Below, piece by piece: positions 7,712 to 60,786 of a stretch of 64,000 nucleotides of DNA (positions are counted from its first letter, which is position 1; every line of letters starts with the position of its first letter). The stretch is from the IMG/VR virus record IMGVR_UViG_3300031525_000865; one strand, written 5' to 3'. The translations under genes were made by a program, and so were the position numbers. The notes below the pieces were generated by a model. That model saw only the letters and a program-made list of their open reading frames with translations, was not told the DNA's origin and made no database searches. Origin of the DNA: a virus.

Positions 7712-8080
7712 ATGGCCCGCAAGCGTACATCCCGCGGCAAGAAGCGAAGCTCGCGTCGATCCGGCAGCGCCCGCGCGGGCAAGCTTTACATCGAGTTGGG
7801 GGCGGTCCCGAACACGGACTACAGCCACGGGCAGCATCTGGGATCGGTGCAAATCCGCAAGCATCGGCAGCCGATCCGCACGATGCAGGAGGGCTCCGAC
7901 GTGGCGCAGCGGTTCATCGCGGAGCACGGGCTGGGCGGAGGCAACTGGGGTGGCTCCGGCAACATCGTCGACAGCCGCGGTCGCGTCCTCGCGCACGTGA
8001 GCTACAACGGGCGCATCTGGGACGCGAAGGACCAGGAGATCACGGCCGACGATCCCAGGTACAGGAAGATCGGGCCGTGA
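7712..8080 (+). CDS. small protein with Arg/Ser-rich N-terminal tag and a GGGNW..G.....VSYNGRIW domain
   Basis: MARKRTSRGKKRSSRRSGSA; TAGTCT 7 nt before the ATG. Confidence 0.75.
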   Translation: MARKRTSRGKKRSSRRSGSARAGKLYIELGAVPNTDYSHGQHLGSVQIRKHRQPIRTMQEGSDVAQRFIAEHGLGGGNWGGSGNIVDSRGRVLAHVSYNGRIWDAKDQEITADDPRYRKIGP

Positions 8081-8547
8081 GCGTCCGCGCTCCGGCGCGG
8101 AAGTTGGCGCTAAGTTCGTCTGTGTTCGAGCGAATCCTGACGGATGTTCGCGACAGTCTCCTCCACCGGATGCGCACCGATGGGTTCTACTCGGCCCTGC
8201 CCAACAAGCGCTACGACGCCACCGTCTGGGACCTCAACAACGGGCTATGCGACGCCTTCGCGTACGAGGTCGCGAAGGCCGTTGCTGCTCACGTGCGTCG
8301 TCCGGGCGATCCAAGATGGCCGCGGTCCTACGAGAGGATCGCGGACACCGACGCGAACGTCGACGTGGTCGTGCTGGCGGACCAGTTCCAGGACTACGAT
8401 GGCGGCGATCACGTCGTTGTCCGGAGAGACGGACGGCTCTACGACGCGGAGTGTATTGGTGGCGTCAGGAGATGGCGCGACCTCCCCATCGTCCAGAACA
8501 GCGGCCTGACCCGAGAGCAGGCTATTTCCTACGGGAAACGGTGCTGA
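8077..8547 (+). CDS. putative papain-fold (Cys-His-Asp) enzyme
   Basis: NNGLCDAFA...GDHVVV...LYDAEC catalytic-triad spacing. Confidence 0.5.
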   Translation: MSVRAPARKLALSSSVFERILTDVRDSLLHRMRTDGFYSALPNKRYDATVWDLNNGLCDAFAYEVAKAVAAHVRRPGDPRWPRSYERIADTDANVDVVVLADQFQDYDGGDHVVVRRDGRLYDAECIGGVRRWRDLPIVQNSGLTREQAISYGKRC

Positions 8548-8779
8548 ATGTCCGCCGCGCCGGGCAGATCGGGCAGTAGCAGAAGCGCGGTGCGGGCAGA
8601 ATGCGGAAGGGTGCGTAGACCTTGCGTCCGACGCGCCGCTGCGCGGGGTGCCCGCATTCGAGGTCGAGAAGCCAGATGTCGCCGTGGCGCTTCTTGCCCG
8701 TGACGGCGACGCGCGACCGTGATCGAGAGCGGAGCGTCCCCAGAACATGCCGACACGGCTGGACGCGGCACCTACTCAT
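8522..8779 (-). CDS. small Cys-containing hypothetical protein
   Basis: LECGH...FCYCPIC. Confidence 0.45.
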   Translation of the reverse strand: MSRCRVQPCRHVLGTLRSRSRSRVAVTGKKRHGDIWLLDLECGHPAQRRVGRKVYAPFRILPAPRFCYCPICPARRTFSTVSRRK

Positions 8780-9101
8780 TGGGGGGAGGGGGTGGAGCGA
8801 GCCATTCGGTCTGAGAGGCGCCCGTGAACTCGCTCTGGCACGCGCGGCAGCGGAGGACGACGTGAGGCACGCCGCTCATGTGCCGGAAGCCCACGGCCTC
8901 GGGTCGAGTGACGGCGTGGAGGCGTAGCTCCAGCTCGTCCAGGCGAGAGAGCGCGCGGAGCATCTCGCCGGCCGAGAACATCGTCCGCCCGCAGTGCAGG
9001 CCTTGCCGCAGATCGTCGAGGTGGTCGCCCCGCAGTTCGAGCTTCAGCGACGGTCGGACTGCGCCGACGACACTTTCTTCAGAAACACCCGCCGCTCCCA
9101 T
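8772..9101 (-). CDS. hypothetical protein, leaderless
   Basis: TAGGAT 6 nt before ATG 9101; CRAC motif. Confidence 0.5.
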   Translation of the reverse strand: MGAAGVSEESVVGAVRPSLKLELRGDHLDDLRQGLHCGRTMFSAGEMLRALSRLDELELRLHAVTRPEAVGFRHMSGVPHVVLRCRACQSEFTGASQTEWLAPPPPPNE

Positions 9102-9562
9102 CGTGCCATCCTATCGATCATGAGCTTACCGCCCAGGTGATCGACCTCGTGGACGGCGCAGCGCGCCAGGAAGTCCCGGAAGACTTCCTCGCGTACCAGG
9201 CCCTCGACCGTCGTGAAGCGAACTCGCGCGACCGTCGGGGCAGCCAGCTTCCATACCACAGTGCCGAAGGAAAGACAGCCTTCCTCGTGCTCTTCGGAGC
9301 CCTCGGTCGACAGGATCTCCGGGTTGATGAGGACGAGAGCTTCGTCCTCCTCCACGGCCATGACGAAGAGCGACGGGCTGGGGATAGTCTCTCCCGACTG
9401 CTCGACCTGGTTGGCGGCGAGTCCGGCGCCGTCGTACTCGCGCATCCACGCCACAAGCTCCGCCGCAAACTTGCGGATGGCAGGGGTCAACCGCTCGACG
9501 CGCGCGGTGGGCGTGCGTAGCGTCTTCTCGTCGCTAGGGTATGTGCGGAGCCGCTCGATCAC
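9044..9562 (-). CDS. def: peptide deformylase
   Basis: motifs GAGLAANQV, EGCLS and HEVDH; GTG 9562 lies 7 nt after TAGAGT. Confidence 0.92.
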   Translation of the reverse strand: MIERLRTYPSDEKTLRTPTARVERLTPAIRKFAAELVAWMREYDGAGLAANQVEQSGETIPSPSLFVMAVEEDEALVLINPEILSTEGSEEHEEGCLSFGTVVWKLAAPTVARVRFTTVEGLVREEVFRDFLARCAVHEVDHLGGKLMIDRMARWERRVFLKKVSSAQSDRR

Positions 9563-9592
9563 GCGGTCTACTCTAGGGTTCCATCGAGGTTC

Positions 9593-9621
9593 TTGCAAGA
9601 ATGTCCGACGGACCGTATAAC
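9593..9621 (+). promoter_or_regulatory. TTGCAA-17-TATAAC promoter with GTCCGAC-N5-GTATAAC box, between divergent genes
   Basis: read directly from the sequence. Confidence 0.8.
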
Positions 9622-9632
9622 AGCTGCTGCCC

Positions 9633-10250
9633 ATGCACGCGCAGCTCGTTGATGGAATCCGCGTGGAGACGGTCAAGCCGGAGAAGGACAGAAACTGGCT
9701 CGTCAAGTGGCGGAGCAATAGCCAACGCGACGAGGCGTGGAAGCGCATGCAGCCTCAGTGGAGCGCCCTCGGTCGTATCGTAAAGCGCCTGGACGCTGCG
9801 AATCTATTCGGCGAAGGGCTGCCTGCGCTCTACGAGGTCGAGCACGAGGACAAGACGAGGTCGCTGTACGAGGCGAGCGAGCTACGCCCTTGCTGCGAGC
9901 ACGAGGACTACACGCCCGCCGAGCGCCAGGCGATGCTCGCCCGCATGGACGCGGTCATCGATGAGTTCTACAAGAGCGCGGCCAGGGCCGGGTGCCACAC
10001 GCTCATCGAGTTCACGGGCCTGATGGGGGAGTACCTCAACGCGTGCAAGATGGCGCACGAGCGCGGCGAGCAGTTTGCGTTTGCGAGCGCGCATTCGGGC
10101 AGCGCGCTCCCGTTCCAGCCGTACCAGCTGGCGTACCTTGCCGAGAAGCTCAACTGCATCTACGGGCCAGCGCTGCGATCGGAAGCCCACCGCAAGGCGT
10201 TCGTCGATGCGCTCTTCCACGGTGAGTGGAAGCTCACGCCCGCTCGATAG
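9633..10250 (+). CDS. hypothetical protein
   Basis: 205-aa ORF downstream of a promoter. Confidence 0.7.
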   Translation: MHAQLVDGIRVETVKPEKDRNWLVKWRSNSQRDEAWKRMQPQWSALGRIVKRLDAANLFGEGLPALYEVEHEDKTRSLYEASELRPCCEHEDYTPAERQAMLARMDAVIDEFYKSAARAGCHTLIEFTGLMGEYLNACKMAHERGEQFAFASAHSGSALPFQPYQLAYLAEKLNCIYGPALRSEAHRKAFVDALFHGEWKLTPAR

Positions 10251-10295
10251 CCCGGCGCGCGCTGGCAGATGTCGATGCGGAAAAAGGGAAGGATC

Positions 10296-10772
10296 ATGTC
10301 TGAAAACAACAGGAACCGAGGTCTCTACGGCAAGTACCAGGTGCGGCGCACCGACGGCAGCTCGGATGCGGGCGGCAAGCACGAGCACTGCGACTGCTTC
10401 GTGCTGGACCTCACGCACGATCCGTTGGCGCTCATCGCGCTCGAAGCCTACGCGACGGCGTGCTCGTACGACTACCCGATTCTCTTCGACGATCTGAACG
10501 ACAAGCTCGCCAAGCTGGTGATGCACCGCACATGCACGCCGCTCTACAAGCGCGGCGATGGGATCAACGGGCAGCGCCAGGAGTGCTCAGCGCCGGCCGT
10601 CATCCCGCTGGGTAACGGTTGCTGGTTCTGCATCGAGCACGCGCAGGACTGGGAGAGGCGCGCGCACCCGCTGGGTCCTACGGGCAAGGGGACGCTGGAG
10701 CGGAGGCTGAAACGCATATCGGACGAGAAGCTCGCGTTGGCGGCGGCGGAGTTCCAGGAGCCCACGAAGTGA
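10296..10772 (+). CDS. conserved phage hypothetical protein
   Basis: GLYGKYQVRRTDG...FVLDLTHDPLALIALEAYA, a motif I recall as common in phages. Confidence 0.7.
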   Translation: MSENNRNRGLYGKYQVRRTDGSSDAGGKHEHCDCFVLDLTHDPLALIALEAYATACSYDYPILFDDLNDKLAKLVMHRTCTPLYKRGDGINGQRQECSAPAVIPLGNGCWFCIEHAQDWERRAHPLGPTGKGTLERRLKRISDEKLALAAAEFQEPTK

Positions 10773-11524
10773 CCACGCGCAAGGAGGAGCTACTGGAAGC
10801 GATCGCCGACGCCATTCATGGCCCGCGATCTGCGACCGAGCCGTTCCCGGGCATGTACGAGACGGTCCTCCTCCCCAGGTACGAGCGTCTGGCGGACGCC
10901 ATTCTGTCGGTGCAAGGCGAGCCCGTGGCGCCACCGCAACACGGGGAGAACTCGTCGGTGCCGTCGCCCGTCGTGCCGGTGGCCAAGCCGGAGGACCCCG
11001 GCAAGCCGGTGGCGCTTGTCTCACCGGAGGAGATCGAGGCGGTGGCCCATCGGCTCCTGCATCGGCTGTGGACGAAGGCGGTCGGTACGTCGGACTACGA
11101 CAAGAAGGCGTGGCAAGACCTGGAAGCGAGCCTCTTCCGATTGTCGCGAGAAGGCAAGCCGTCGGGCGCCAGCGAAGGCAAGAACCCTGTCTGCGGCGAC
11201 CACTGGCACGGCTTGTCGGGCGCGATGGTCGATGGTTCCACCGGTTGCCCGTGGTGCCACATCGAGACGTTGCAGCAGCAGATCCAGCGTCTGGAGGCCG
11301 ACGGGGACGAGGCCAAGTTTTCACCGACCGAGTGGTTCCGAACCATGCTTCGTCTTCGGCTGCAGGCATTCCCGACAGAAGCCTTTCCGGAGGGACCTCT
11401 TGGCGAGCACGGAGCGACGGTGGACGTGTGCAGCGCGCGGGCGATACGGAGCCTTCTCAAGGATCTCATCGGGGACGTAGAGAAGTTCATCGAGGAGACG
11501 GCGCGAGCCAACCGTAGGAAGTGA
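10769..11524 (+). CDS. hypothetical protein
   Basis: GTGA overlap; CGDH...CPWC motif. Confidence 0.6.
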   Translation: MTTRKEELLEAIADAIHGPRSATEPFPGMYETVLLPRYERLADAILSVQGEPVAPPQHGENSSVPSPVVPVAKPEDPGKPVALVSPEEIEAVAHRLLHRLWTKAVGTSDYDKKAWQDLEASLFRLSREGKPSGASEGKNPVCGDHWHGLSGAMVDGSTGCPWCHIETLQQQIQRLEADGDEAKFSPTEWFRTMLRLRLQAFPTEAFPEGPLGEHGATVDVCSARAIRSLLKDLIGDVEKFIEETARANRRK

Positions 11525-11525
11525 G

Positions 11526-11819: not shown

Positions 11820-11825
11820 TGGGGG

Positions 11826-13780: not shown

Positions 13781-13796
13781 CGAGGCGGACTCGGTC

Positions 13797-14234: not shown

Positions 14235-14426
14235 ATGAGCAGTCACAAGGGTCACGTCATCGGCCACATCCATCGCCCGAAGGGCAAGTTCGTGTTCGTC
14301 GAGGCCAACGGCGACATCCGCGCGATGAGCCCGCACCGCTCGCACTCGGGCTCGAAGAAGAAGGGCAGCAGCCGCAAGAGCCGCAAGAAGGGAAGCCGCG
14401 GCAAGAAGAAGAGCAGCCGCCGCTAG
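14235..14426 (+). CDS. small basic protein with Lys/Arg/Ser-rich C-terminal tail (protamine/histone-like)
   Basis: ends SGSKKKGSSRKSRKKGSRGKKKSSRR. Confidence 0.7.
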   Translation: MSSHKGHVIGHIHRPKGKFVFVEANGDIRAMSPHRSHSGSKKKGSSRKSRKKGSRGKKKSSRR

Positions 14427-14660: not shown

Positions 14661-15032
14661 ATGGCCCGCCGCAAGTCGCGTCGCTCCGCAAGCCGCAGCA
14701 GTCGAGGCAGTCGCCGTCGTTCCGGCAACGCGTCTGCGACCGAGGCCGAGGTGTTCACGAGGCTATGGGATGATCCGAAGTACGTCCGCCTGCAGACGCG
14801 CAAGGACGCGGCGCTCAAGGCGCTATCTTACGCGGAGGCGCACTATCGTCAGCCGGATGGTCGTGAGCGGCTGGAGCGGGCGATTCGGTTGGCGCACGGC
14901 GCCATCAAACGGATGCAGGACTACGAGGGGAAGGCGTTCGACGCGGCGGGCTACAGGGACCGCGGGTTGACGGCGCCGTTTTCGGAGATGCGGACGCGCA
15001 TCCTCTCTCGGCTGGGTCTTCCCCCGAGGTAG
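14661..15032 (+). CDS. small helical protein with Arg/Ser-rich N-terminal tag
   Basis: MARRKSRRSASRSSRGSRRRSGNASA. Confidence 0.7.
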   Translation: MARRKSRRSASRSSRGSRRRSGNASATEAEVFTRLWDDPKYVRLQTRKDAALKALSYAEAHYRQPDGRERLERAIRLAHGAIKRMQDYEGKAFDAAGYRDRGLTAPFSEMRTRILSRLGLPPR

Positions 15033-15867: not shown

Positions 15868-16287
15868 TTATAGGTACCCCTGCGCGTCGGCGCTGAGGTT
15901 GATCTCGAACTCCTGGCGAATGATGTCGGCCGCCAGTTTGTCGCCGGCCTTCAGGAGCGCCACGTACTTGTCCTCGTCGTCACCGACCATGTCGATGGCG
16001 AGCTTCTTGATGGGTCCCCAGCGCTTGGCCCACTTCGTCAGGCTGACGAGAACGACGGGCACGCGCCGCAAGGGGGCGCGCTTGGCCGCTGCGAGCCGGT
16101 GCGTGCCGGTCCACGCCTGGTAGCGTCCGGGCCGCACTTGCTCGACGAGCAGCGGGCGTCCTTGCCATCCGTTCTCGCGCATGAGCGCGACCAGCAGCGG
16201 CAGGTGCGTCTTCTTGCGTTTCACCCGGTGGAGCGGCGTGATGCGGCGTGGATCGACCAAGCGCCGCCTCTGCGCGCGCTTCTTCAT
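15868..16287 (-). CDS. ParB/Sulfiredoxin-like N-terminal domain protein
   Basis: LMRENGWQGRPLLV...WTGTHRLAAAK...VPVV. Confidence 0.7.
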   Translation of the reverse strand: MKKRAQRRRLVDPRRITPLHRVKRKKTHLPLLVALMRENGWQGRPLLVEQVRPGRYQAWTGTHRLAAAKRAPLRRVPVVLVSLTKWAKRWGPIKKLAIDMVGDDEDKYVALLKAGDKLAADIIRQEFEINLSADAQGYL

Positions 16288-21056: not shown

Positions 21057-21057
21057 G

Positions 21058-24413: not shown

Positions 24414-25109
24414 ATGAGCGGCCGCTCGGGCAGCGCGGTCGCCGCGCACACGAAGCTCGTCCACCACGACGGGACCAATTTCGCTGTATCGCCCGCGCAG
24501 TACCGCCTGCTGCAGCGGGCCGGCAGAGCAGGCGGCGGATGCTACGTGCAAGGCTCGCAGGAGCGTTCCGCGGCGAAGCTCGTCAACCTGAAGCTGGGTA
24601 CGACGGAAGCCGAGTGCGGCCCGAATGTCGAGCGCGTGTTCTTCATGCTGGCGGACGGTGTGCTTGGGTTTCGGCGCCATGTGAAGGTCGAAGAGCCGAG
24701 CGCCATGGCGCCCAAAGAGAAGGTGCCTGTTGCCGTGGAACGCGCCGAGCTTCGTGCGCTGTTGGCGCACGACAAGACGGGCGAATGGTCCGACGACGCG
24801 GGAGACGAATCGATCGGTTCGGTCGTGGCGGTGACCGGGCACGCCGCGATCGCGCAGGTCATGCAGCGGGGGCCGGTGCGCCGGGCCGAGGATCTCATCG
24901 AGCGCAAGCGGCTGACGCGCCAGATCGCAATGCTGCATAACTTGACGCCGGGCATCCTGTCGGAGCTGGATGGCCTGCGGGATGTCCTGACTGAGACGCG
25001 CAAGCTCCTGGCGAGCATTCTGGTGACGTTGGCGGCTGGTCCCGCTCGGGAGCACCGACGCGTGAAGCAGACGATCGACCTCATCGACTACGCGCTCCGC
25101 GATAGGTGA
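24414..25109 (+). CDS. hypothetical protein
   Basis: 231 aa, directly adjacent to the upstream stop. Confidence 0.65.
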   Translation: MSGRSGSAVAAHTKLVHHDGTNFAVSPAQYRLLQRAGRAGGGCYVQGSQERSAAKLVNLKLGTTEAECGPNVERVFFMLADGVLGFRRHVKVEEPSAMAPKEKVPVAVERAELRALLAHDKTGEWSDDAGDESIGSVVAVTGHAAIAQVMQRGPVRRAEDLIERKRLTRQIAMLHNLTPGILSELDGLRDVLTETRKLLASILVTLAAGPAREHRRVKQTIDLIDYALRDR

Positions 25110-27756: not shown

Positions 27757-28284
27757 CTAGCCGCCGCCGTGGACCTGCGCGCGCGCCGTTTCTGTCGCGA
27801 TCGTGTAAGCGTTGTTCCACGCCTTCACCAGGTCCCGCGGCCAGTCGGCGAACCGGTGGCCGTACTGGGCGTAAATGTCCTCCATCCGTTTCGGCCCGAA
27901 ACCTTCACGGGCCATGACGGACCTCTCGATCTGGGCCCATCGCGCGCTGCGTTTGCGTTGCGCCTTGACCCCGGCCCGCGCGGCCGCGGCGTCCTCTGCC
28001 GGGACGATGTGCACGCCCGCGGTCGCGAAGTCCCCGAACGGTGTGTGGAATAGAAGCTCGCCGTTTCGCTTGAACTCGGCCTCCAGCTCGTCGCTCGTTT
28101 GCCAGAGATCGTAGAGCGCGCGGTGCATTTTCTCCGCGTTCTCGATCCTGCTGGTGACCTCCGGCCACTCGGTCTCCGGGTACGGGATGTGGAGGTACAG
28201 GTGAAGAGGTCCGCTCTTCAAGCCGGTGATGACCCACTCGCGGTCGTGGTGGACGACGTCCAGTTTTTTGCCACGCGTTCGCAT
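27757..28284 (-). CDS. hypothetical protein, leaderless
   Basis: TAAACT 7 nt before ATG 28284. Confidence 0.65.
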   Translation of the reverse strand: MRTRGKKLDVVHHDREWVITGLKSGPLHLYLHIPYPETEWPEVTSRIENAEKMHRALYDLWQTSDELEAEFKRNGELLFHTPFGDFATAGVHIVPAEDAAAARAGVKAQRKRSARWAQIERSVMAREGFGPKRMEDIYAQYGHRFADWPRDLVKAWNNAYTIATETARAQVHGGG

Positions 28285-33975: not shown

Positions 33976-34020
33976 GGAATCTTGCTGGGCGTGGAACCTT
34001 CACGTATCATCGGAGACGAG

Positions 34021-34485
34021 ATGTCTACCAAGAAGCGTACGAGTCGCCGCGCGTCCAGTCGTCGGGGCAAGTCGCGCAGCGGCAACGCGTCCCGGATCGT
34101 GCAGGGCACGTACAACCCGGGCATGAACCCGTTCCAGCCGCCGCCGGAACTTCGTTTCAGCAGCCAGTGGAAGCTGGGGGATGCCGGGGCGGTCTACGAA
34201 TTCTACGCGAAGATCATGCGCATCGAGGCGGACATCTCCGAGGACGACTGGGAGCACGAAGCTCGGATGGCGTTCAAGGAGTTCGAGCAGAAGCTTCGCA
34301 AGAAGTACCCGTGGGTTGGGCGCGTCTACTTCACCGGTCGCAGCGGCGGCTGGATCGCGGTCGATGATCCGCAGGGCAAGATGACGGAGTCCAGGCTGCT
34401 GGCGATCTCGAAGATGGTGCAGTCGGCTCTGGCGCAATTCAAGAAGGACATCGTGCGGGCGTACCCAAGGCGCTCGAAGCGCTGA
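34021..34485 (+). CDS. protein with Arg/Ser-rich N-terminal tag
   Basis: MSTKKRTSRRASSRRGKSRSGNASR; GGAG SD. Confidence 0.75.
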   Translation: MSTKKRTSRRASSRRGKSRSGNASRIVQGTYNPGMNPFQPPPELRFSSQWKLGDAGAVYEFYAKIMRIEADISEDDWEHEARMAFKEFEQKLRKKYPWVGRVYFTGRSGGWIAVDDPQGKMTESRLLAISKMVQSALAQFKKDIVRAYPRRSKR

Positions 34486-34502: not shown

Positions 34503-35348
34503 ATGAGCACGACGACCACGCGCTCACTCGGCCACTGCCAGGTGTACGGGCACGAGCAGAAGATCGTGCGTGGGCGCCTGGTGCGTCATGGCTACCGGCG
34601 TCCGGGTCACGGCCAGATCCATGGGCGCTGCAAGGGCACGGACGCGTCTCCGTACGAGGTGTCCTGCGACAGGCTCCGCCAGCTGCGCGAGGATCGTCAG
34701 GAGGCGCTGGCGGATCACGAGAGCTACCTCACGAAGATCAAGCGCGGTCAGGTGGCGAGTTTCACGCAGCTGGTGAGGACGAAGAAGGGCATGGAGCAGA
34801 AGGAGTACAGCGCGAGGGCGATGGATCCGGTGGCGTTTCAGCACGCGCTGGATGTCCTACGCAGCAGCGTCGAGCGCGAGATCGCCAGCGACCGCAACGA
34901 CATCGTGTCCATGACCATGCGCATCGACGCGTGGCGTCCAAGGGATGTGCGCACGGTGAGCGAGCACGAGCAGGAGCGCCGGACGACGGAGGAGAGGGAG
35001 GAGCGCGTCCGTCTCAAGCAAGAGCAGGAGGCTCAGCGCACGTCGCGCGCCGTCGAGGCGGAGGGAAAGCGTGTGACGACGGAGGCGCGCCGAGTCGTCG
35101 AGGCGGCCGACATCCTCCAGCAGCTTCGAGAGCTGGCGGCGAGGCCCGATCATCAGGGCGAGGCGGTTCGCGGGCAGGCGTCGCGTCTGATGAAGAAGTT
35201 GCGGACGCCGCGCTACTACTGGTTCTGGAGCATGAACGTCGATCGCGATCCGGCGTTCAACGAGGCGCTACTCCGGCTTGGGCTTGCAGAGATCCGCGAT
35301 CACGCCGAGTACGGCGGCAAGGGCACGTACGTGCACTGGCTGTTCTAG
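34503..35348 (+). CDS. hypothetical protein with C..HG..C..P(Y/F)EVS domain; paralog of 47072..48232
   Basis: GHCQVYG...RHGYRRPGHG..GRCKG...PYEVS. Confidence 0.7.
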   Translation: MSTTTTRSLGHCQVYGHEQKIVRGRLVRHGYRRPGHGQIHGRCKGTDASPYEVSCDRLRQLREDRQEALADHESYLTKIKRGQVASFTQLVRTKKGMEQKEYSARAMDPVAFQHALDVLRSSVEREIASDRNDIVSMTMRIDAWRPRDVRTVSEHEQERRTTEEREERVRLKQEQEAQRTSRAVEAEGKRVTTEARRVVEAADILQQLRELAARPDHQGEAVRGQASRLMKKLRTPRYYWFWSMNVDRDPAFNEALLRLGLAEIRDHAEYGGKGTYVHWLF

Positions 35349-36145
35349 CGGTACTGGGGCGTTGGCGAGCCCGTGGCGGGCGTCCACTGGGTTTCGGTGC
35401 GGAGCATGGCGTTCTCGTACTCGGCGCCCCAGTTTCCGGTGGGGGCGTGCTGGCCGGGCTGCAGACCCCAGCCTGGGCTGGTTTGTTGGTCGGCGATGGT
35501 CTTGTGGTCAGCCGCTTGCTGCGCCTGCTGCTTGTGCATGGCGGCTGCGATGACGTCGAGGAGCCCGGATGCGGAAGCATCGGGCGGTCCGGGGGGCGTG
35601 GCCTGCACGGAGGCGGTTACGTTCAGGTGCGGGGCGATGGTCTGCGCGATGGTCTGGATGGGATCGCCCCGCATGGCGCCCTCGGCGATCTGGGCAGCGA
35701 CGTGCGGCATGCCGCTCTGGATGGCCAGGTGCGCCGCCGACTGCAGACCTTCTGGGAGGTTCGGCAGGTGGAGATGAAGGTGGTGGTGATGCGGATGCTC
35801 GGGGCGACCGGGCGTGGCTCCCGGTGGTGGCGGCGTGGGCCTGGGAGGCGGTGGGGCTGGCCGGTGGGTGCGTTTCCATGTCTCCAGCCAGCCCGGGGGG
35901 GCGTGGTCGAGGTCGACGGCCGACACGTGGCTGGTGGGACCGATGGGACGCGGCGCCGCCGGAGACATGACGAACGGCGCCTCCAGTCTCTCGCCTGGAA
36001 TAGGCACGGGGCCCTCCGTGTAGGTGGGCGCGTACTGCGGCGGGAGCGGCGGCGGCGGCGCCTGGCCCGAGACGTGGGCCTGGGAGCGGTCGCGTGTGAA
36101 CAGGAGGATCCCCAGACCGATGCCGACGAAGACCAGAGGGCCCAT
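35345..36145 (-). CDS. membrane-anchored Pro/His-rich protein, leaderless
   Basis: MGPLVFVGIGLGILLF; TACACT 7 nt before the ATG. Confidence 0.7.
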   Translation of the reverse strand: MGPLVFVGIGLGILLFTRDRSQAHVSGQAPPPPLPPQYAPTYTEGPVPIPGERLEAPFVMSPAAPRPIGPTSHVSAVDLDHAPPGWLETWKRTHRPAPPPPRPTPPPPGATPGRPEHPHHHHLHLHLPNLPEGLQSAAHLAIQSGMPHVAAQIAEGAMRGDPIQTIAQTIAPHLNVTASVQATPPGPPDASASGLLDVIAAAMHKQQAQQAADHKTIADQQTSPGWGLQPGQHAPTGNWGAEYENAMLRTETQWTPATGSPTPQYR

Positions 36146-40199: not shown

Positions 40200-40826
40200 T
40201 TACTGGTCTCCTACGGGGCCACCATCAGCCGATTCGTCGAGCGCGCCAGGCACGTCGGTGCACGCCATCGGCGCTCCCCCATCATCCCACGGTCGGTCGG
40301 CTTGGTACTGAGATACGTCGAGGCAACCGACGTGGTCTTCGCCGTTCCTGTAGGTAGGGTTCATCACTGCGTATGTCGTGCACGGCGCCGTGCACGGATG
40401 CAGGAGACCAAGCGCGTGCCCCCACTCGTGAATCATCGTGTCTTGCATCTCGTCGTACGACGTCAGTGTGTTCGAGATGAAGACGAAGTACGGTACGGTG
40501 TACCCGATGTAGTCGCCATCGACGAGCGTATCGAAATCCGCGAAGCTGACCTCGTGGACCGCGAAGCACCCGGGGTCGACGCAACCGAGGTCTCCGTGGA
40601 GCACGGTGATCTGAACGTCGGTGAACTCGGTCCATTGCCGCAACGCCTCGGCGACGGCGGCCTCGCCATCCGCGTCGACGTCGGTGGAGACATAGAACGT
40701 GTAGCTCTGGAGCGCCGGGAGGTGGAGGCCAGCGTCGCCAGAATCGATCTCGTCGACCGTCGTGCATGCGACGACGCAGACAAGTGCCGCAGTGAGGAGG
40801 AAGAGGAAGGCGCGTTTCAGGGCCAT
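40200..40826 (-). CDS. secreted or lipoprotein matrixin-like (metzincin) metalloprotease
   Basis: signal ending VVAC; HEWGHALGLLH; Met-turn AVMNP. Confidence 0.85.
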   Translation of the reverse strand: MALKRAFLFLLTAALVCVVACTTVDEIDSGDAGLHLPALQSYTFYVSTDVDADGEAAVAEALRQWTEFTDVQITVLHGDLGCVDPGCFAVHEVSFADFDTLVDGDYIGYTVPYFVFISNTLTSYDEMQDTMIHEWGHALGLLHPCTAPCTTYAVMNPTYRNGEDHVGCLDVSQYQADRPWDDGGAPMACTDVPGALDESADGGPVGDQ

Positions 40827-40829
40827 TGC

Positions 40830-41051
40830 TTAGTCTCCGCTGCCGGCGTCCGAGTCGCGCCGAAGGAACATGGGCTGCGGCCCGTTGGGGTCGTCGGAGC
40901 CAGGTACGAGGTCGTGTATGGGCGGCCCGTTGTTGGGCGTGCCGCTGAAGCTGTAGGTGGGACCGCTCCCGAACAGTGGATGCGTGAAGCACGCGCCGAT
41001 TGCGAGAACGAGCGCGAGGCCAGCGGGGACCACGATGCGAAGCGTCATCAC
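40830..41051 (-). CDS. small exported or lipoprotein
   Basis: hydrophobic N-terminus ending IGAC. Confidence 0.55.
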   Translation of the reverse strand: MMTLRIVVPAGLALVLAIGACFTHPLFGSGPTYSFSGTPNNGPPIHDLVPGSDDPNGPQPMFLRRDSDAGSGD

Positions 41052-45580: not shown

Positions 45581-46247
45581 ATGAGTGTGATCGTCGAGAT
45601 CCGGGCGGCCGAAGGTGGCCTCGATGCAAAAGACCTCGTTCGCGAGCAGTTCACGGTGTACGCGCGCCGCGCTGCTCGTCACGGTCTTTGACCTCGAACT
45701 CATCGAGGACCGTCCGGGGCTGATGGTCTTTCGCGCGCTGGGGGATGCTGCGGCGCACGATTTCCATGACGAGGCGGGAGGGCATCGTTGGCAGCGCGTC
45801 CCTCCGACGGAGAAGCGCGGCCGGGTACAGACCAGCACGGTGACGGTGGCGGTGCTGGAAGAGCCCACACCGCTGCAGGTGCGCCTGGACGATCGGGATC
45901 TGGAATGGCAGACGTGTCGGGCGTCGGGCAGCGGCGGTCAGAAGGTCAACAAAACCGAGAGCGCGGTGCAGCTGCGGCACGTGCCCACGGGGCTGACGGT
46001 CCGGGTTGAGACGGAGCGTTCGCAGCACCAGAACCGTGCGACGGCGCGCACGCTTCTGGGGGCGAGGATCTGGGAGCGCGAGCGTCAGCGGATCCAGAAC
46101 GAGCGGGACGCGAGCCGCCGTGAGCAGGTGGGGGCTGGGCAGCGCGGCGACAAGCGGCGGACGATCGCTGTGCAGCGCGGTACGGTGGTCGACCACGTGA
46201 CGGGTCGAGCCTGGTCACTACGTGACTACCTGCGTGGGGCCTGGTAG
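45581..46247 (+). CDS. short class-I peptide chain release factor (RF1-type PxT, GGQ; lacks domain 1), encoded across a +1 frameshift: join(45581..45688,45690..46247), 221 aa
   Basis: Frame 0 gives MSVIVEIRAAEGG..YARRAARHGL, stopping at CTT-TGA-C (45686-45692). The +1 frame continues DLELIE..GGHRWQRVPPTEKRGRVQTS..GSGGQKVNKTESAV..ERSQHQN. Confidence 0.85.
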
Positions 46248-46742: not shown

Positions 46743-46818
46743 CCGCAAAGGATACACGCACCGGCCCCTGCCGGCCAAAAGCTTGCCGGCCCGGGTGCAT
46801 GGGCCGTATTCTCGTGGC

Positions 46819-47064
46819 ATGGCCGCTCGTCGCACCAAGGGTCGCAGTTCCCGTCGATCTATCCGTCGATCCGGCAACGGGGAGGGCAGCGACGAGAAGG
46901 CCCTCGTGAGCGCCAAGGCGTACATCGCCGGGCTGATGGGGCGCGCAACGAGCGCACTTCGCGAGCTGGATACGCGTGGCGAGCCGGGTACGGACATGGG
47001 CTCCCTCGTGGGCTACATGAATCGGTACCGCAACGAAGACTGGTACGAGCGCTACTACCGCTGA
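46819..47064 (+). CDS. small protein with Arg/Ser-rich N-terminal tag, leaderless
   Basis: MAARRTKGRSSRRSIRRSGNG; TATTCT 6 nt before the ATG. Confidence 0.7.
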   Translation: MAARRTKGRSSRRSIRRSGNGEGSDEKALVSAKAYIAGLMGRATSALRELDTRGEPGTDMGSLVGYMNRYRNEDWYERYYR

Positions 47065-47071: not shown

Positions 47072-48232
47072 ATGGCCCAGCTGACCGATCCGCTAGCGCT
47101 CGGCTTTCTGACGAAAGCCACGAAGGGCATCAAGGGGATGTTCACGCCGGACGTGCTGGCCCAGGTGGCGCCGCTCTTCGGCTGGTCGATTCGGTCGCAT
47201 GTCGTGGCGGCGCCGCTGGATGGCGAGCAGTTTTCGGGTGTCCTCAAGAAGCTGACGCCCGGCGTCCCAGGTGACCACCTTTTTGGCAGCGCGCGCGAGC
47301 GAAAGTCGATGCGCATCTTCGAGCCAGCGACCGGTCCGGCCAAGGTGGAAGCGATCCGCAAGCACGTCGTCGAGGTCGGCAAGGACGGTCCGGCACATCC
47401 CGAGCCAGGGCGGCTCTACGCGCACGGGTTGAGTGCGGGGATGGAGGTTGCGTACGGCCACAGCAGCTACATGCTTGGGGTCGATTCGGTGTGGTACGGC
47501 ATGCCGGGCTGGACGATCACGACGCCCAAAGGAAGCGTGACATTCACGCAGAAGATCTCCTACAACGGCAGACCGATCCCGTTCTCAGAGAGCGCGCCCG
47601 ATAAGGTCTGGTCGCTGCTCTACAAGTCGGGTCTGAAGGAGGACGCGAAGCGCGTTCTCGACTCCGTCGGCCATGAGGCGGTGGAGCGTGCGCTACGGCC
47701 TGCCGCATTCCGCGAGCTGGCGGGCACGGGGACGTGCTCGTGGTGCTTCAAGAACGTGAAGCTCCTGGGGGGCCGCGGAAAGGTGATGCGCCACGGCTGG
47801 TCGGTGAGCGGTCGCCGGCAGCGTGGCGCGTACGGTCTCACGTGGCACACGGGGCCCTGCGGGGGCTTCGGATGGCCGCCTTTCGAGGTGAGCGTCGAGG
47901 GGACGACGGCGTTTCGGATCTACGTGATGAATGCGCTGGATCGCATGAAGGAAGGTCTGGCGAAATTGCGCTCGCGACCCGACCAGCTCCTGGTCGGCGT
48001 GGAAAGTGGCACGACCAAGCTCACCTATGTCTCCAAGGACACGACCAAGAGGGTGTACTCCAGCGCGCGGGACTCACGTGGCGCGCCGATGTACGTCTCC
48101 GAGTACGAGGTTGTCCTGAAGGACAAGATCGACGAGGCCGAGCGCGAGATCGCCGCCGCCAAGGAAGAGATTGAATTTCTGACGCAGAAGATCAAGACAT
48201 GGAAGCCGCAGCCTCTTCCCGGAACGAGGTAG
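47072..48232 (+). CDS. hypothetical protein with C..C..HG..C..PFEVS domain and a C-terminal coiled coil
   Basis: GTCSWC...RHGW...TGPCGG...PFEVS. Confidence 0.75.
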   Translation: MAQLTDPLALGFLTKATKGIKGMFTPDVLAQVAPLFGWSIRSHVVAAPLDGEQFSGVLKKLTPGVPGDHLFGSARERKSMRIFEPATGPAKVEAIRKHVVEVGKDGPAHPEPGRLYAHGLSAGMEVAYGHSSYMLGVDSVWYGMPGWTITTPKGSVTFTQKISYNGRPIPFSESAPDKVWSLLYKSGLKEDAKRVLDSVGHEAVERALRPAAFRELAGTGTCSWCFKNVKLLGGRGKVMRHGWSVSGRRQRGAYGLTWHTGPCGGFGWPPFEVSVEGTTAFRIYVMNALDRMKEGLAKLRSRPDQLLVGVESGTTKLTYVSKDTTKRVYSSARDSRGAPMYVSEYEVVLKDKIDEAEREIAAAKEEIEFLTQKIKTWKPQPLPGTR

Positions 48233-50179: not shown

Positions 50180-50496
50180 CGACCTCGGACGAGTGGATGG
50201 GAGCGCACGGTTGGCGCGTGCTGGTGCAGCCCAACGGGCTCCTCGCCATTTTCAGCATGGTGACCGACGAGATGCTTCTCGTGAACGCGACGGACGAGGA
50301 AGTCGCAGCGTGTGTCGTGACCGCCGAGCGCGAGCGCGCGGAGCGTGGTGCGACAGGTCTCGCGCGGCAGATGGTCGCGGAGGCGCGCGAGGACAGCCGG
50401 GCGCCGTGGGCCACGCGATGGGAGCGGACGCTCGCGATGCTGGGCGGCTGGCGAGGGATGGCGTACGTGGACCACCTGACGAAGCGGTGCGCGTGA
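50176..50496 (+). CDS. hypothetical protein
   Basis: ATGA overlap. Confidence 0.55.
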   Translation: MTTSDEWMGAHGWRVLVQPNGLLAIFSMVTDEMLLVNATDEEVAACVVTAERERAERGATGLARQMVAEAREDSRAPWATRWERTLAMLGGWRGMAYVDHLTKRCA

Positions 50497-51106: not shown

Positions 51107-53740
<2,634 letters not shown>

Positions 53741-55384: not shown

Positions 55385-55397
55385 TAGGATCACGCGC

Positions 55398-56132: not shown

Positions 56133-56366
56133 CCGGCCACAAGAAGCAGGACACGATCGACGCGGCGCTGGCACTGCTCGACGAAGAGAAGAGCAAGCTG
56201 CGGCGCATCTTCCGCCAGCCGACGCGCTCGTCCTCCATTCACTGGCTCCTTCCGATGCTGCAGTCGGGATGACCCGCCGTTGGCACGAGGAGCTGTCGAA
56301 CATCCAGCACGAGGCGCAAGGTCGTCGGCTCGCCAGCAGCGACACTCTCTGGTACAAAATGCGCCC

Positions 56367-57710
56367 ATGGAAAGCGACAGCTTCGACATCATCGAGAGCC
56401 AGGGAGGTGTGCCCATCAAGGCCTGGACGCGAGGCGTTCCGGTGGAGGATGGCGCGAAGGCGCAGCTCCGCTACACCTCGCAGCTTCCCATCGTGTGGCC
56501 GCACATCGCCGTCATGCCCGACGTACACCACGGCTTCGGCTCGACGGTGGGCAGTGTCATCCCGACCGTAGGAGCGATCATTCCCGCCGCGGTCGGGGTC
56601 GATATTGGCTGCGGCATGGTGGCAGCGCGCACGACGTTGACGAGCCATCAACTGGGCGACAGCGCAAAGGCGCTCTTCGATTCGATCTCGCATGCGGTGC
56701 CGCACGGCCGTTCGGACGAAGGTGGCAACAACGACCGTGGCGCGTGGGGCCAGCCGCCGGAGGTGGTGACGGCAGCGTGGGCGGGGCTGGAGGAGCGGTT
56801 CAAGCGGATTGTGGACAAGTACCCGCGCCTGGAGACGCGCCGGCAGGTCAAGCAGCTGGGGACGCTGGGTACGGGCAACCACTTCATCGAGGTGTGCATC
56901 GACACCGAGGACCGCATCTGGGTGATGCTGCACTCGGGCAGTCGTGGCATCGGCAACCGCATCGGGAGCTACTTCATCGCGATCGCGAAGGACGAGATGG
57001 ATCGCCTTGGGATCTCCATGCCCAACCGGGACCTCGCGTACCTGTCGGAGGGGACCGAGCATCTGCCAGACTACATGGAGGCGGTGGGCTGGGCGCAGGA
57101 CTACGCGCGCACGAATCGCGAGCTGATGCTGGAGCGCACGCTGTCGGCGCTGCGCAAGGCGGGGCTGCCGAAGTTCGAGGTGACCGGGCAGGTGGTCAAC
57201 TGCCACCACAACTACGTGCAGAAGGAGGAGCACTTCGGCCGCGAGGTCTACCTGACGCGCAAGGGTGCGGTGAGTGCTCGTGTCGGAGAGATGGGCATCA
57301 TCCCCGGTAGCATGGGAGCCCGGAGCTTCATCGTGCGTGGCAAGGGCAACGCGGAGTCCTTCCACACGTGCAGCCACGGGGCTGGCCGGGTGATGAGCCG
57401 TACGGCGGCGCGGCAGACGATCACGCTGGCGCAGCACCGCGAGGACACGGCGCACGTCGTGTGCTGCAAGGACAAGGACGTCGTTGACGAGAGCCCTCGG
57501 GCCTACAAGTCCATCGAGGCGGTGATGGCGGCGCAGTCGGATCTCGTGGAGATCGTCCACGAGCTTCGGCAGATTGTCTGCGTCAAGGGTCTTGGTGACG
57601 GCGACGGGCACAAGGGCAAGAAGGAGCGGAGGAGGAACGACAGGCGTCAGGAGGCGAGTCTCTACGGGCACGGCGAGCCGGACGACGACGAGAGCGGTCC
57701 CGACGCGTGA
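56367..57710 (+). CDS. rtcB: RNA ligase RtcB
   Basis: MPDVH, VGVDIGCG, LGTLGTGNHFIE, HSGSRG, CHHNY, PGSMG, SHGAGR, DESP.AYK. Confidence 0.96.
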   Translation: MESDSFDIIESQGGVPIKAWTRGVPVEDGAKAQLRYTSQLPIVWPHIAVMPDVHHGFGSTVGSVIPTVGAIIPAAVGVDIGCGMVAARTTLTSHQLGDSAKALFDSISHAVPHGRSDEGGNNDRGAWGQPPEVVTAAWAGLEERFKRIVDKYPRLETRRQVKQLGTLGTGNHFIEVCIDTEDRIWVMLHSGSRGIGNRIGSYFIAIAKDEMDRLGISMPNRDLAYLSEGTEHLPDYMEAVGWAQDYARTNRELMLERTLSALRKAGLPKFEVTGQVVNCHHNYVQKEEHFGREVYLTRKGAVSARVGEMGIIPGSMGARSFIVRGKGNAESFHTCSHGAGRVMSRTAARQTITLAQHREDTAHVVCCKDKDVVDESPRAYKSIEAVMAAQSDLVEIVHELRQIVCVKGLGDGDGHKGKKERRRNDRRQEASLYGHGEPDDDESGPDA

Positions 57711-57727
57711 GCGCGGGACCATGAAGG

Positions 57728-58654
57728 TCAGCGGTAGCCAGAGCTGGTCTTGCGGGTGGTGTCGACGGCGGGGACATCGTCCACGTCGGCTTCCATCTCG
57801 ATCTCCATGTGACGCATACTGTCGCTCGTGTTGCGCATGACGAAGTCGAAGTCTTGTGCGACGACGCATGCATCGAAAACGATAGCGAGGCCGTTCTCGA
57901 ACGCTTCGACCGCGATGGGCATCTCGGAGATGAGCTGGTCTCGGTTGCCGATCTTCACGGCGAGAAGGTCGAGATCTCCGCGGCTGTCGGAGTGGATCCA
58001 CAGACGCCTGGTCCGCATGTGCCACGGTGAGCGCCAGATGATGTGCTCCTCCGGCGTGGGCGGCACGCCAAACCGACGCGTCTTCGAGCACGGCCTCGGA
58101 TCGGGCGCGAGTGGGTACGGCCGTGAGTCGTCATTGGAGTGACCTTCGTACGCGAGCTTGACGAGAACGGGCTTCTTGGAAGTGTTCTCCACGACGCAGT
58201 ACATGACCTCGGCGACCTGAAGAGTGCGGATGTTCTTGCCGGCGAGAGGGACGCCGCCGCGACCTTCCTGGCCTGGAGTGAAGCCAATGCCTCCCATTCG
58301 GTGGGTGGCGTTGTCCTTCTCGTCGAAGGTGACGACGTGTCCGCCCAGATGGATCTCGCGCAAGCAGACGGGATGCTCCAAGCCTGCGCCGCGGTCCGTG
58401 ACCGCCGTGCTGCCCTGGAGCCTCTCGCCGTTTTTGGAGAACGCGAGGATCGTCAGCGCGTCGGGCGTCCAGCAAGAGATGAGGGGCCGCATCGCGAACA
58501 TCAGCTTCTCGCCCGGAGGCGCGATGGCCGGCTTGTCCGAGTAGACAGTGTCCTCCAGAAAGAACTTTTTCTTCTTGCCCGTAGTCTCGGGCGCGGACGG
58601 TGATGTGTTTCCCTGGTAGCCTGTCTGTACGCGAGTTACGCCGGTCCGCACCAT
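57728..58654 (-). CDS. beta-rich protein with two internally repeated domains (jelly-roll candidate)
   Basis: TLQVAEVMYCVVENTS versus ACVVAQDFDFVMRNTS; alternating beta-strand patterns in both halves. Confidence 0.6.
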   Translation of the reverse strand: MVRTGVTRVQTGYQGNTSPSAPETTGKKKKFFLEDTVYSDKPAIAPPGEKLMFAMRPLISCWTPDALTILAFSKNGERLQGSTAVTDRGAGLEHPVCLREIHLGGHVVTFDEKDNATHRMGGIGFTPGQEGRGGVPLAGKNIRTLQVAEVMYCVVENTSKKPVLVKLAYEGHSNDDSRPYPLAPDPRPCSKTRRFGVPPTPEEHIIWRSPWHMRTRRLWIHSDSRGDLDLLAVKIGNRDQLISEMPIAVEAFENGLAIVFDACVVAQDFDFVMRNTSDSMRHMEIEMEADVDDVPAVDTTRKTSSGYR

Positions 58655-58749
58655 GCAGCCATGGTGCATCCGTCATCGATCCAAGTCCAAGCCAAATCGC
58701 GACGTCGTCGAGGTCGTGGCTGTGGTCCAGGTAGGGTCGCGCGCGCATC

Positions 58750-58778
58750 TTGCGTGAGCGGCGGCCAGGTCTTAGCCT
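58750..58778 (+). promoter_or_regulatory. TTGCGT-17-TAGCCT promoter of dnaJ
   Basis: canonical spacing; GGAGG follows. Confidence 0.55.
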
Positions 58779-58788
58779 GGAGGCTCGG

Positions 58789-59952
58789 ATGGGCAAACGA
58801 GACTACTACGACGTCCTGGGGATCACGCAGGACGCGTCCTCGGACGACATCCGTCAGGCCTTCCGTCGCGAGGCGGCCAAGAGTCATCCGGACCGAAACC
58901 AAGGGGACGAGAAGGCCGAGGCTCGGTTCAAGGAGATCAACGAGGCCTTCCAGGTGCTCTCCGACGACGGCAAGCGCCGGATCTACGATCGGTTCGGGCA
59001 TGCGGGGCTCGATCCGGGGGGAGCGGGCGCGAGCGATGGGGACGGCTTCCACGGGGTCCAGGACGTGTTCGCGCACATGCAGGAGCTGTTCGCGGACATG
59101 TTCGGGGCGACGGTACCACCGGAGGAGCAGCGACGCCGGCACCGCCACAACGGCGCACCACCGCGGCAGGCCAAGAGCGGACAGGACATCCGGGTCGAGA
59201 TCCCGATCACGATCCGCGAGGCCGTGTACGGGTGCACGCATACGGTGACGGTGCGGTCGACGGCGGTGTGCTTGGAATGCGGCGGGACGGGCGCCCGACG
59301 CGGCACGAAGCCCGAGGTCTGCTCGGGGTGCGGAGGGGGCGGCCAGGTGTCGGTGCCGCGTGGGTTCATTGCGTTCTCGCAGCCCTGCGGGATGTGTCAC
59401 GGCGTGGGGCAGCTCATCCACCATCCGTGTGGCGCATGCCGTGGCCAGGGGGCGTCGGAGACGACCCGCCAGGTCCCGGTCAACTTCCCTCCGGGGATCG
59501 CCGAAGGTCAGCGTCTGCGCGTACGTGGCTACGGGATGCCCGGGCGCGACGGAGCGCCGTCCGGTGATCTGCAGGTGGAGATCGTCCTCAAGCCCGACGA
59601 GAGATTCGAGCGGCACGGTGCCGATCTCCAGACGCATGTGCACGTGCTGTTCACCCAGGCGATCCTGGGTGCCGAGCTGAGGGTACCGGTGCCCGACGCC
59701 ACGCGCGACGACGTGACGGTGCCGATGTTCTTGCCGCCGGGCACGCAGAACGGGGCGGCCCTCCGCGTGGCGGGCCATGGACTTGGGCGCACCGGGGCGC
59801 GAGGTGTGCTCATCGTCGTCATCCATGTCGATGTGCCCGTGAAGCTGTCGGAGCGGGCGCTGGCTCTGGTCGCGGAGTTGAACGCCGAGCTGGTTTCTCC
59901 GCAGAAGAAGCCGCAGCTCTCGCCGGGAGCCGAGCCGCCGCCGCCCGGGTGA
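58789..59952 (+). CDS. dnaJ: chaperone DnaJ (class A)
   Basis: J-domain with HPD, G/F region, four CxxCxGxG repeats, C-terminal domain. Confidence 0.95.
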   Translation: MGKRDYYDVLGITQDASSDDIRQAFRREAAKSHPDRNQGDEKAEARFKEINEAFQVLSDDGKRRIYDRFGHAGLDPGGAGASDGDGFHGVQDVFAHMQELFADMFGATVPPEEQRRRHRHNGAPPRQAKSGQDIRVEIPITIREAVYGCTHTVTVRSTAVCLECGGTGARRGTKPEVCSGCGGGGQVSVPRGFIAFSQPCGMCHGVGQLIHHPCGACRGQGASETTRQVPVNFPPGIAEGQRLRVRGYGMPGRDGAPSGDLQVEIVLKPDERFERHGADLQTHVHVLFTQAILGAELRVPVPDATRDDVTVPMFLPPGTQNGAALRVAGHGLGRTGARGVLIVVIHVDVPVKLSERALALVAELNAELVSPQKKPQLSPGAEPPPPG

Positions 59953-59974
59953 GTCGTGGTACGCTCGCGGAGTC

Positions 59975-60436
59975 GTGCGTCGTGACAGCTCGATCCTGAC
60001 CGCGGGCCTGGCGAACGTGACCGAGAGCGGCGCGCACTTCGAGACGTGCGTCCCTGTTCGGTTTCGTTTCGTCCGCAATACTGTGCCCGCCCCGCGCCGG
60101 TCGGTGGACCCGAGGATGTACAGCCAGGACGTCGAGCCGGCTGGGATGTACATGCTCCACGTGCCTGGGGACGGAAAGCTGCCCACGGGCTGGGAGGAGG
60201 GGACGGCGGAGTTTCGTTGCCCGCTGGTGCTGGAGTTCAATACGGATCCGGGTGCGACCTATGGCCCGAACGATTGGAAGCGGCGTCTCTACCGCGCAGT
60301 GAAGCGCAAGAACCTGAGGTTGAGCCACAGCCTGCTCGACGCGGGCTACGACGGGATCGTGACCGTGCGCGATGGGGGGACAAGCGAGATCGTCGATCTG
60401 CGCCCCGCCCGCGGATGGACCCGTCACAGGCGCTGA
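59975..60436 (+). CDS. hypothetical protein, possibly an ART-like fold
   Basis: QDVEPAGMY...F.CPLVL...LLDAGYDGIVTV...SEIVDL. Confidence 0.55.
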   Translation: MRRDSSILTAGLANVTESGAHFETCVPVRFRFVRNTVPAPRRSVDPRMYSQDVEPAGMYMLHVPGDGKLPTGWEEGTAEFRCPLVLEFNTDPGATYGPNDWKRRLYRAVKRKNLRLSHSLLDAGYDGIVTVRDGGTSEIVDLRPARGWTRHRR

Positions 60437-60474
60437 TTGGCAAGCGCCGTGCGTCTCGTGGTATTCTCGAACGC

Positions 60475-60786
60475 ATGTCGCGGATCTCCAAGTCGAACGT
60501 CGTTGGGCTCTTCGAGCACCTGGTGAAGGCGCTGGGCGGCCGCATGGCCACCTCGTACAAGGACGTGGGGGGCTACCGGCTCGACTACAACGGCGGCTAC
60601 GGCGGCTACAACATCGAGCGCATCTCCAACGAAGGCGGGGCGGTGAGCCAGCCATTCGGGAGCGAGCGGCATGCGGCGACGCCGTTCTGGTACATGATGC
60701 GGTTCGCGCTCATGGCGATCGAGGAGGCCCAGAAAAAGCACAAGGGTTCGTTCCGACGGTCGAGTCGCGGCGGGTCTCGACGCTAG
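60475..60786 (+). CDS. small protein with an Arg/Ser-rich C-terminal tail, leaderless
   Basis: ends KKHKGSFRRSSRGGSRR; TGgTATTCT 7 nt before the ATG. Confidence 0.7.
   Translation: MSRISKSNVVGLFEHLVKALGGRMATSYKDVGGYRLDYNGGYGGYNIERISNEGGAVSQPFGSERHAATPFWYMMRFALMAIEEAQKKHKGSFRRSSRGGSRR

Follow-up and report, generated by a model that had tools for sequence, protein, structure and literature searches.

A portable arginine/serine-rich N-terminal tag on unrelated small proteins of a probable huge phage: a candidate packaging or delivery signal

Why would a phage place the same strongly basic peptide at the start of several unrelated small proteins? The question is raised by a 64,000-nucleotide stretch of viral DNA (IMG/VR record IMGVR_UViG_3300031525_000865; hereafter the window), which belongs to an uncultivated, metagenome-only, phage-like element from peat that is very large and high in GC. 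Four of its genes, with ATG starts at positions 7712, 14661, 34021 and 46819, open with an arginine/serine-rich peptide of 20–24 residues. An initial annotation of the window had noticed these peptides, along with basic C-terminal tails on three other proteins, and had proposed a packaging or delivery signal; all the peptides and tails translate exactly as it quoted them. We find that the N-terminal tag is a discrete, portable module, selected at the protein level and restricted to one lineage, and that at least five unrelated small proteins across a group of very large high-GC phages carry it.

The tag follows a simple plan: Met and Ala or Ser, a stretch rich in Arg, Lys and Ser, and then R-(S/H/R)-G-(N/D/S)-(A/V/G) at the border with the cargo domain. 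The four window tags have net charges of +8 to +10, contain no Glu or Asp, consist of 38–45% Arg plus Lys and 24–35% Ser plus Thr, and end in R-S-G-(N/S)-(A/G). Across ten tags from the window and related loci, length stays within 20–26 residues and net charge within +7 to +10 (8–11 Arg and Lys residues), and acidic residues are absent save for Asp in place of Asn in two end motifs. In an alignment of eleven tags, Met1, one Arg and the end-motif Gly never vary. The best-conserved part is the R-x-G-(N/D/S)-(A/V/G) end, which stands precisely where the folded domain joins on. Each tag has at most one or two hydrophobic residues and is followed directly by a soluble domain, with no hydrophobic h-region of the Sec/Tat type. 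An AlphaFold2 model of the 34021 protein has a mean predicted local distance difference test score (pLDDT) of 84 and falls to 50–64 over residues 1–40; we predict the tag to be intrinsically disordered beside a confidently folded cargo.

The tags stand out from the background of high-GC DNA. All four tagged N-termini are clear charge outliers among the 98 genes of our codon-usage-based gene call. We wrote the design as a rule: a start codon followed by 18–28 residues with a net charge of +7 or more, no more than 2 hydrophobic residues and 4 or more Ser or Thr, ending [RK][SHR]G[NDSA][AVG]. The rule matched 4 of the window's 3487 candidate starts, precisely genes 7712, 14661, 34021 and 46819; control phage DNA with a similar GC content (303 kb, 14,451 candidate starts) gave no match. 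Because the rule was devised after the tags were known, the control count is the informative part, and it upholds the enrichment over Arg/Ser-rich background on which the packaging proposal depended. Translated in all six frames, the window gives nine matches to a shorter pattern, [RK]SG[NS][AG]; four of the nine are the tags, 15–20 residues past an ATG. A fifth forms the N-terminus of 24414–25109 (+), a 231-residue protein of unknown family that begins M-S-G-R-S-G-S-A without a basic stretch (chance of such placement ~0.04).

A search of PDB sequences with one tag gave no match, and an IMG/VR scan with the pattern M-A-x-K-K-R-T-S-R gave 20 loci and no true tag. A hidden Markov model (HMM) built from tags outside the window retrieved the 34021 tag only; the biased-composition correction of HMMER suppresses the remaining tags. 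We also considered x-G-(D/N)-A as a genome-wide cleavage or linker motif and rejected it: of 7 matches in 18,400 residues, 3 are tags and 2 are a repeat in a single protein. That protein (6677–7627, −), divergent from 7712, repeats H-x-H-G-D-A-x-P-A-R-x-P internally at residues 88 and 145, and the repeat resembles the G-D-A tag ends of related loci.

The cargo domains behind the tags are unrelated. The initial annotation had called them so and had read them in frames biased toward GC at third codon positions (GC3), and both descriptions hold: the four window cargoes and a fifth from a related locus have no pairwise similarity, and the window cargoes have coding-type composition, with GC3 of 0.84–0.92 and GC1 above GC2. 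None of the tagged or tailed proteins matches Pfam or PHROGs. Three of the five cargoes are basic, which rules out the tag as a mask for acidic cargo.

Three of the four tagged starts are forced by the proteins themselves. Tag 1 (7712–7771, +; 20 residues, net +9, end RRSGSA) precedes a cargo of ~100 residues and unknown function (7772–8080, +), for which an ESM-Atlas model of residues 22–111 matches clusters of ~86-residue untagged hypothetical proteins, mostly from Uroviricota, with a template-modeling score of ~0.8 by the hit. Residues 2–57 of this gene offer no alternative in-frame start, and public gene calls use the tag ATG. Tag 3 (34021–34089, +; 23 residues, net +9, end SRSGNA) is carried by an alpha/beta domain (34090–34485, +) whose metagenomic family has the motif GRSGGW (alignment A1 and the AlphaFold2 model); a fold search of this model against the PDB and AFDB clusters gave no significant match. 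Tag 4 (46819–46881, +; 21 residues, net +8, end RRSGNG) leads into a 60-residue helical family ending EDWYE..Y (46882–47064, +; alignment A3). In both the 34021 and 46819 genes, residues conserved in the cargo family stand upstream of every alternative start, so that, as with the lack of a later start in 7712, the tag ATG is imposed. Tag 2 (14661–14732, +; 24 residues, net +10, end RRSGNA; cargo 14733–15032, +, ~99 residues, function unknown) stands apart. Public calls of this gene differ (93 or 173 residues), we found no clear promoter or Shine-Dalgarno site, no homolog besides itself and no usable Atlas match, and its tag thus rests on likeness to the other three, including the junction R-S-G-N-A-S that it has in common with 34021.

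Promoter-like sites precede the same three genes. The initial annotation had credited several tagged genes with their own promoters, and 7712 has the −10-like hexamer TAGTCT (7699–7704, +) 7 nt before its ATG, 34021 has TTGCTG-17-TATCAT (33982–34010, +) 10 nt before, and 46819 has TTGCCG-18-TATTCT (46783–46812, +) 6 nt before. Together with the C-tailed gene at 60475, they form a set with a TAnnnT hexamer 6–10 nt 5' of the ATG, mostly with TTGnnn 17–19 nt further up. For the three tagged genes this placement fits leaderless mRNA, as far as sequence can indicate. Many window genes carry a TAnnCT-type hexamer 6–10 nt before the start, among them 9562 (−), 18318 (+), 20865 (+), 27757–28284 (−), 35345–36145 (−), 37401 (+), 59975 (+) and 60475 (+), a class that suggests widespread leaderless transcription in the window; a second class of promoter has TATAAC and longer leaders. 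In one peat metatranscriptome, short contigs cover 34746–34981, 40811–41013 and 45619–45819, none of them over a tag, and such contigs cannot show starts.

The tag is retained in relatives whose cargo has diverged. Conservation was a premise of the packaging proposal, and orthologs with 48–62% cargo identity in sister metagenome contigs keep the tag. The ortholog of the 7712 protein (P0020, 60% identical, on a 224,530-bp ENA contig) preserves the end S-S-R-R-S-G-S-A after a basic stretch that differs and is five residues longer. That of the 46819 protein (P0022, 62% identical, on a 549,902-bp ENA contig) has kept the basic tag, with the end R-R-R-S-G-A-G. Among orthologs the basic stretch drifts and takes insertions and deletions, while length, net charge and end motif are kept.

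Cargo families may carry the tag or lack it. Distant homologs of three cargoes (7712, 34021 and 46819) are untagged and begin where the tag ends, the outcome that the initial annotation had proposed to look for. In the 46819 family, ten more distant homologs have non-basic N-termini of similar length before a conserved A-G-E-G-D motif. In the 34021 family (alignment A1), tags ending G-N-A, G-N-V or G-D-V are found on P0005/L027, L026, L032 and L033; L025, L028, L030 and many other members have none. A tree of this cargo domain confines the tagged members to one half and intersperses them with untagged ones, requiring about four changes, and a single origin of the tag in the family is still compatible with it. 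Such patchiness indicates that the tag is readily gained or lost. At the L028 locus the 34021 homolog is untagged and the product of the adjoining gene (L028:2013), an unrelated 156-residue protein, has a full tag ending R-R-S-G-D-A. This protein is the fifth unrelated tagged cargo.

The C-terminal tails are genuine, with weaker support than the N-terminal tags. All three end in SRR and a stop codon: 14331–14426 (+; 31 residues, net +15) in the small gene 14217/14235–14426, 60733–60786 (+; 17 residues, net +8) in gene 60475–60786, which has the hexamer TATTCT 7 nt 5' of its ATG, and 4926–4985 (+; 19 residues, net +6) in gene 4368–4985. The ending occurs in 3 of 98 called genes versus 1 of 510 other open reading frames (ORFs). 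Of the claim that these tails belong with the tags, the sequences stand; the statistics are weaker, and while the 14426 and 60786 tails are striking, the 4985 tail is the weakest of the three.

The element that carries these genes is very probably a huge tailed phage. The window has a GC content of 65–69% and genes on both strands, the majority of them without a family match. Recognizable products include an SNF2 helicase, ClpB, DnaJ, RtcB, peptide deformylase, an RF-1 domain protein, UDG, ParB, a sigma factor, TnpB, peptidoglycan-binding domain proteins and an FtsH-type M41 peptidase domain. Searches of phage and plasmid collections, both for near relatives and at the protein level, found no relatives of the window. 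Its proteins recur on many short JGI, ENA and Logan contigs with 99.8–100% identity to the window, and the longest metagenome contigs that carry them measure 165,821 bp in ENA ERZ27249652 and 223,939 bp in ENA ERZ27248934, so the element spans at least 224 kb. The two sister contigs of 224,530 and 549,902 bp, both from one other ENA sample, ERZ26871208, are syntenic with the window. Single window genes have distant relatives on IMG/VR viral contigs, some match PHROGs, and the ESM-Atlas clusters nearest to two window proteins are mostly from Uroviricota. The IMG/VR relatives that we call G1 and G2 have just 2–5 genes in common with the window and are tag-free; we used them as controls.

What, then, might the tag do? 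Its architecture, one disordered peptide on unrelated small proteins with the best-conserved part at the domain junction, looks like that of an address peptide followed by a processing or boundary motif. Our analysis leads us to favor, tentatively, a lineage-specific, portable, disordered address that would load its cargo into the virion and be cleaved at the G-N-A end. The polycationic stretch could bind a polyanion in the assembling particle, either an acidic scaffold or core or the DNA itself. Tagged proteins held in this way would end up inside the capsid, to be delivered along with the genome. A maturation protease might cut at the conserved G-N-A end and free the cargo, and the protamine-like peptide would then stay on the DNA. 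A stronger form of the proposal, that a 20–26-residue peptide with a G-N-A site is a polycationic "ride-along" signal, sufficient to load arbitrary small proteins into a huge-phage capsid through DNA or an acidic core, is possible and more doubtful.

Several facts weigh against a virion role. The tagged genes are dispersed among non-structural genes, and their TAnnCT leaderless promoter type is common to many housekeeping-like genes and so gives them no late-gene mark. In G1, a complete related phage, the untagged homolog of the 34021 protein lies between integrases and a primase-helicase, outside the virion module of that phage. Genes for a capsid, portal, terminase, scaffold or prohead protease were not seen in the 64 kb of the window, nor in gene tables of its flanks that extend ~13 kb leftward and ~7 kb rightward. 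The capsid-targeting peptides known so far lack a polybasic character and carry a Glu-type cleavage motif at their end, whereas the window tags end in G-N-A-type motifs. Finally, the last Gly of tag 4 is also the first residue of the conserved GEG motif of its cargo family, so the "SGNG" end is partly the cargo's own.

The main alternative, nearly as probable as the packaging reading, is an uncleaved electrostatic tether. Here the Arg/Ser tail would keep intracellular accessory proteins on DNA, RNA, ribosomes or a replication compartment, much as protamine, SR or RGG tails do, or the motifs rich in arginine that begin lambdoid N proteins. The composition of the tag is protamine-like and its predicted disorder agrees. 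Location among non-structural genes, general promoters and the early/replication setting of the untagged G1 homolog all point the same way, as do the cargoes that are themselves basic. C-terminal polybasic tails in the same genome fit a position-independent electrostatic role better than an N-terminal propeptide. A tether leaves unexplained, however, why the R-x-G-(N/D/S)-(A/V/G) end is the best-conserved part and lies exactly at the domain boundary, and why length and charge are held within such narrow ranges.

A regulatory or turnover tag is unlikely. The peptide could serve as a degron or a phospho-switch with RRxS-type sites, read by a host or phage protease or unfoldase so that the action of the tagged proteins is timed. 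RR-S motifs do recur in the tags, and the element encodes a full ClpB (passing the TIGR03346 equivalog cut-off), a DnaJ and the M41 peptidase domain protein. Yet ClpB is a disaggregase that, to our knowledge, does not read degrons, no kinase and no ClpP partner is seen in the window, and the motif has no precedent; the idea is pure inference.

It is very improbable that selection acts on the nucleotides of the 5' coding region, as a signal for initiation, structure or operator binding, with the peptide as a by-product. Three tags begin leaderless-type mRNAs, and A/T-ending Arg and Ser codons are ~2–3 times commoner in tags than in gene bodies (CGT plus CGA, 45% versus 22% of Arg codons; AGT plus TCT plus TCA, 35% versus 11% of Ser codons). 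The first 25 codons of other window genes show no such shift, and the preference could serve to keep GC-rich structure or repeats out of the 5' ends of leaderless mRNAs. The window tags other than that of 34021 also end in CGT CG(A/T) TCC GGC, within a common stretch CGTCG(A/T)TCCGGCA. The 34021 tag, however, writes the corresponding residues as TCG CGC AGC GGC, with CGC for CGA and with AGC for the TCC that precedes the Gly codon in 7712, 14661 and 46819, and orthologous tags use yet other codons. The use of both Ser codon families and of varied codons for the same end places the constraint on the peptide, not on the nucleotides: orthologs keep the peptide and its charge, not the nucleotide sequence, and nothing unusual marks the N-termini of the window's other leaderless genes. 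That the tags are chance Arg/Ser-rich translations of high-GC DNA upstream of the real starts is barely credible: codon-usage scoring and some public gene calls do favor later starts for 14661, 34021 and 46819, but the empty control, the conservation of the tag in orthologs and the conserved cargo residues upstream of alternative starts contradict this for every tagged gene except 14661.

Two of the tagged genes have related neighbors. Directly 3' of 34021 and 46819, after gaps of 17 and 7 nt, lie 34503–35348 (+) and 47072–48232 (+), whose products have a homologous Cys-rich and coiled-coil domain (BLASTP E 8e-9). Both match phrog_28271 weakly, and the Atlas clusters nearest to the 47072 protein are mostly from Uroviricota. 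A small tagged protein and its partner may form a conserved operon at these two places; the partner domain was not found beside homologs of the 34021 cargo at other loci.

Other basic N-termini in these phages are built differently. In the window, 61255–61878 (−) and 15868–16287 (−), one of them ParB-like, begin with strongly basic segments (net +8) that have few Ser and no G-N-A end. In G2-type phages, proteins of 347–362 residues (L017:10247, −; L042:14126, +; L043:5875, +) start with a repeated S-N-R-R-R-H-R-R-N-G block followed by a hydrophobic segment. This Arg block is a different polybasic N-terminal design from a distant phage group. To the left of the window, L071:10916–13281 holds a run of small same-strand ORFs (45–109 residues) that are rich in Cys-x-x-Cys and typical of a phage early region; none is tagged.

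The remaining gene content is of separate interest. The window combines chaperone and translation-repair genes in a set unusual for a phage: ClpB (51122–53740), DnaJ (58789–59952), RtcB (56367–57710), a short RF-1/PCRF protein (45615–46247), peptide deformylase (9044–9562) and a stand-alone M41 peptidase domain (62859–63650), with PTH2 present additionally in a sister contig. ARAGORN reports a tRNA-SeC (anticodon TCA) at 50215–50291 (+), within a predicted 106-residue ORF and ~4 kb from the RF-1 domain gene; Rfam at its gathering threshold finds no tRNA there, and the call is probably a false positive. G1 (L070; L012–L015) is a 79.8-kb IMG/VR phage with direct terminal repeats. In a contig scan of genomes, the sole match was a G1-type contig of near full length, binned in a Gemmatimonadaceae metagenome-assembled genome, which may reflect mis-binning or give a weak hint of host for that distant relative only.

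The tag matters under either of the two better explanations. If it serves packaging or delivery, the problem that phage T4 solves with its capsid-targeting sequence (CTS) would have a second solution of different chemistry. Injected proteins of uncultivated huge phages could then be predicted by a rule on sequence, and there would be a simple, portable handle with which to load foreign proteins into capsids. If the peptide were in addition sufficient for loading, phages could turn ordinary early proteins into pre-packaged, co-injected effectors by acquiring it. An intracellular tether would instead single out several uncharacterized small phage proteins with a common site of action, narrowing the search for their functions. 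Under both, the tag clearly illustrates the movement of a short linear module from one phage protein to unrelated others.

Among known systems, the T4 internal proteins offer the closest parallel in organization. The T4 CTS, which gp21 cleaves after Glu, has no polybasic character. IPI, IPII, IPIII and Alt are diverse proteins that share just this N-terminal sequence (PMC3012670). As in the window, a short N-terminal peptide is the sole common part of diverse small proteins of one phage, a conserved end motif marks the junction, and the genes are dispersed (PMC3012670). The window tags differ in being protamine-like, free of Glu and Asp and ended by G-N-A. In phage SPN3US (240 kb), N-terminal propeptides of 20 and 24 residues are removed from the head proteins gp45 and gp225 (PMC10052503). 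Cleavage there follows the motif A-X-E, and the propeptides are not described as a common polybasic tag (PMC10052503). What the element does have in common with SPN3US and other phiKZ-like phages is the genome size class (~240 kb) and a similar length of N-terminal peptide.

In composition, the nearest counterparts come from eukaryotic viruses. Adenovirus pVII and pre-mu and baculovirus P6.9 are Arg-rich, Ser-containing proteins that neutralize packaged DNA, and the adenovirus ones are trimmed by the virion protease. The window tags resemble them in very high Arg and Lys content with Ser and Thr and no acidic residues. Those proteins are dedicated to condensing DNA, however, whereas the window tag forms a short extension of globular proteins in a virus of bacteria. 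The adenain consensus, (M/I/L)-X-G-X-G or (M/I/L)-X-G-G-X, is not matched by the tags, which have no hydrophobic P4 residue and end R-S-G-N-A.

Arginine-rich motifs of lambdoid N proteins are the remaining comparison. Like the tags, they are N-terminal, ~20 residues long, strongly basic and carried by small phage proteins. They form helices rich in Arg, Ala, Gln and Glu, are poor in Ser and Gly, are each specific to one boxB-like RNA hairpin and are not known to occur on unrelated proteins; in the window tags, by contrast, the high content of Ser and Gly argues against a helix, and these tags are common to unrelated proteins. The initial annotation had known of no earlier description of this tag, and we likewise found none in Pfam, PHROGs, PDB sequences or the papers searched. 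We regard the tag as a known kind of element in a new form: a terminal address, or polybasic tail, that is portable among phage proteins.

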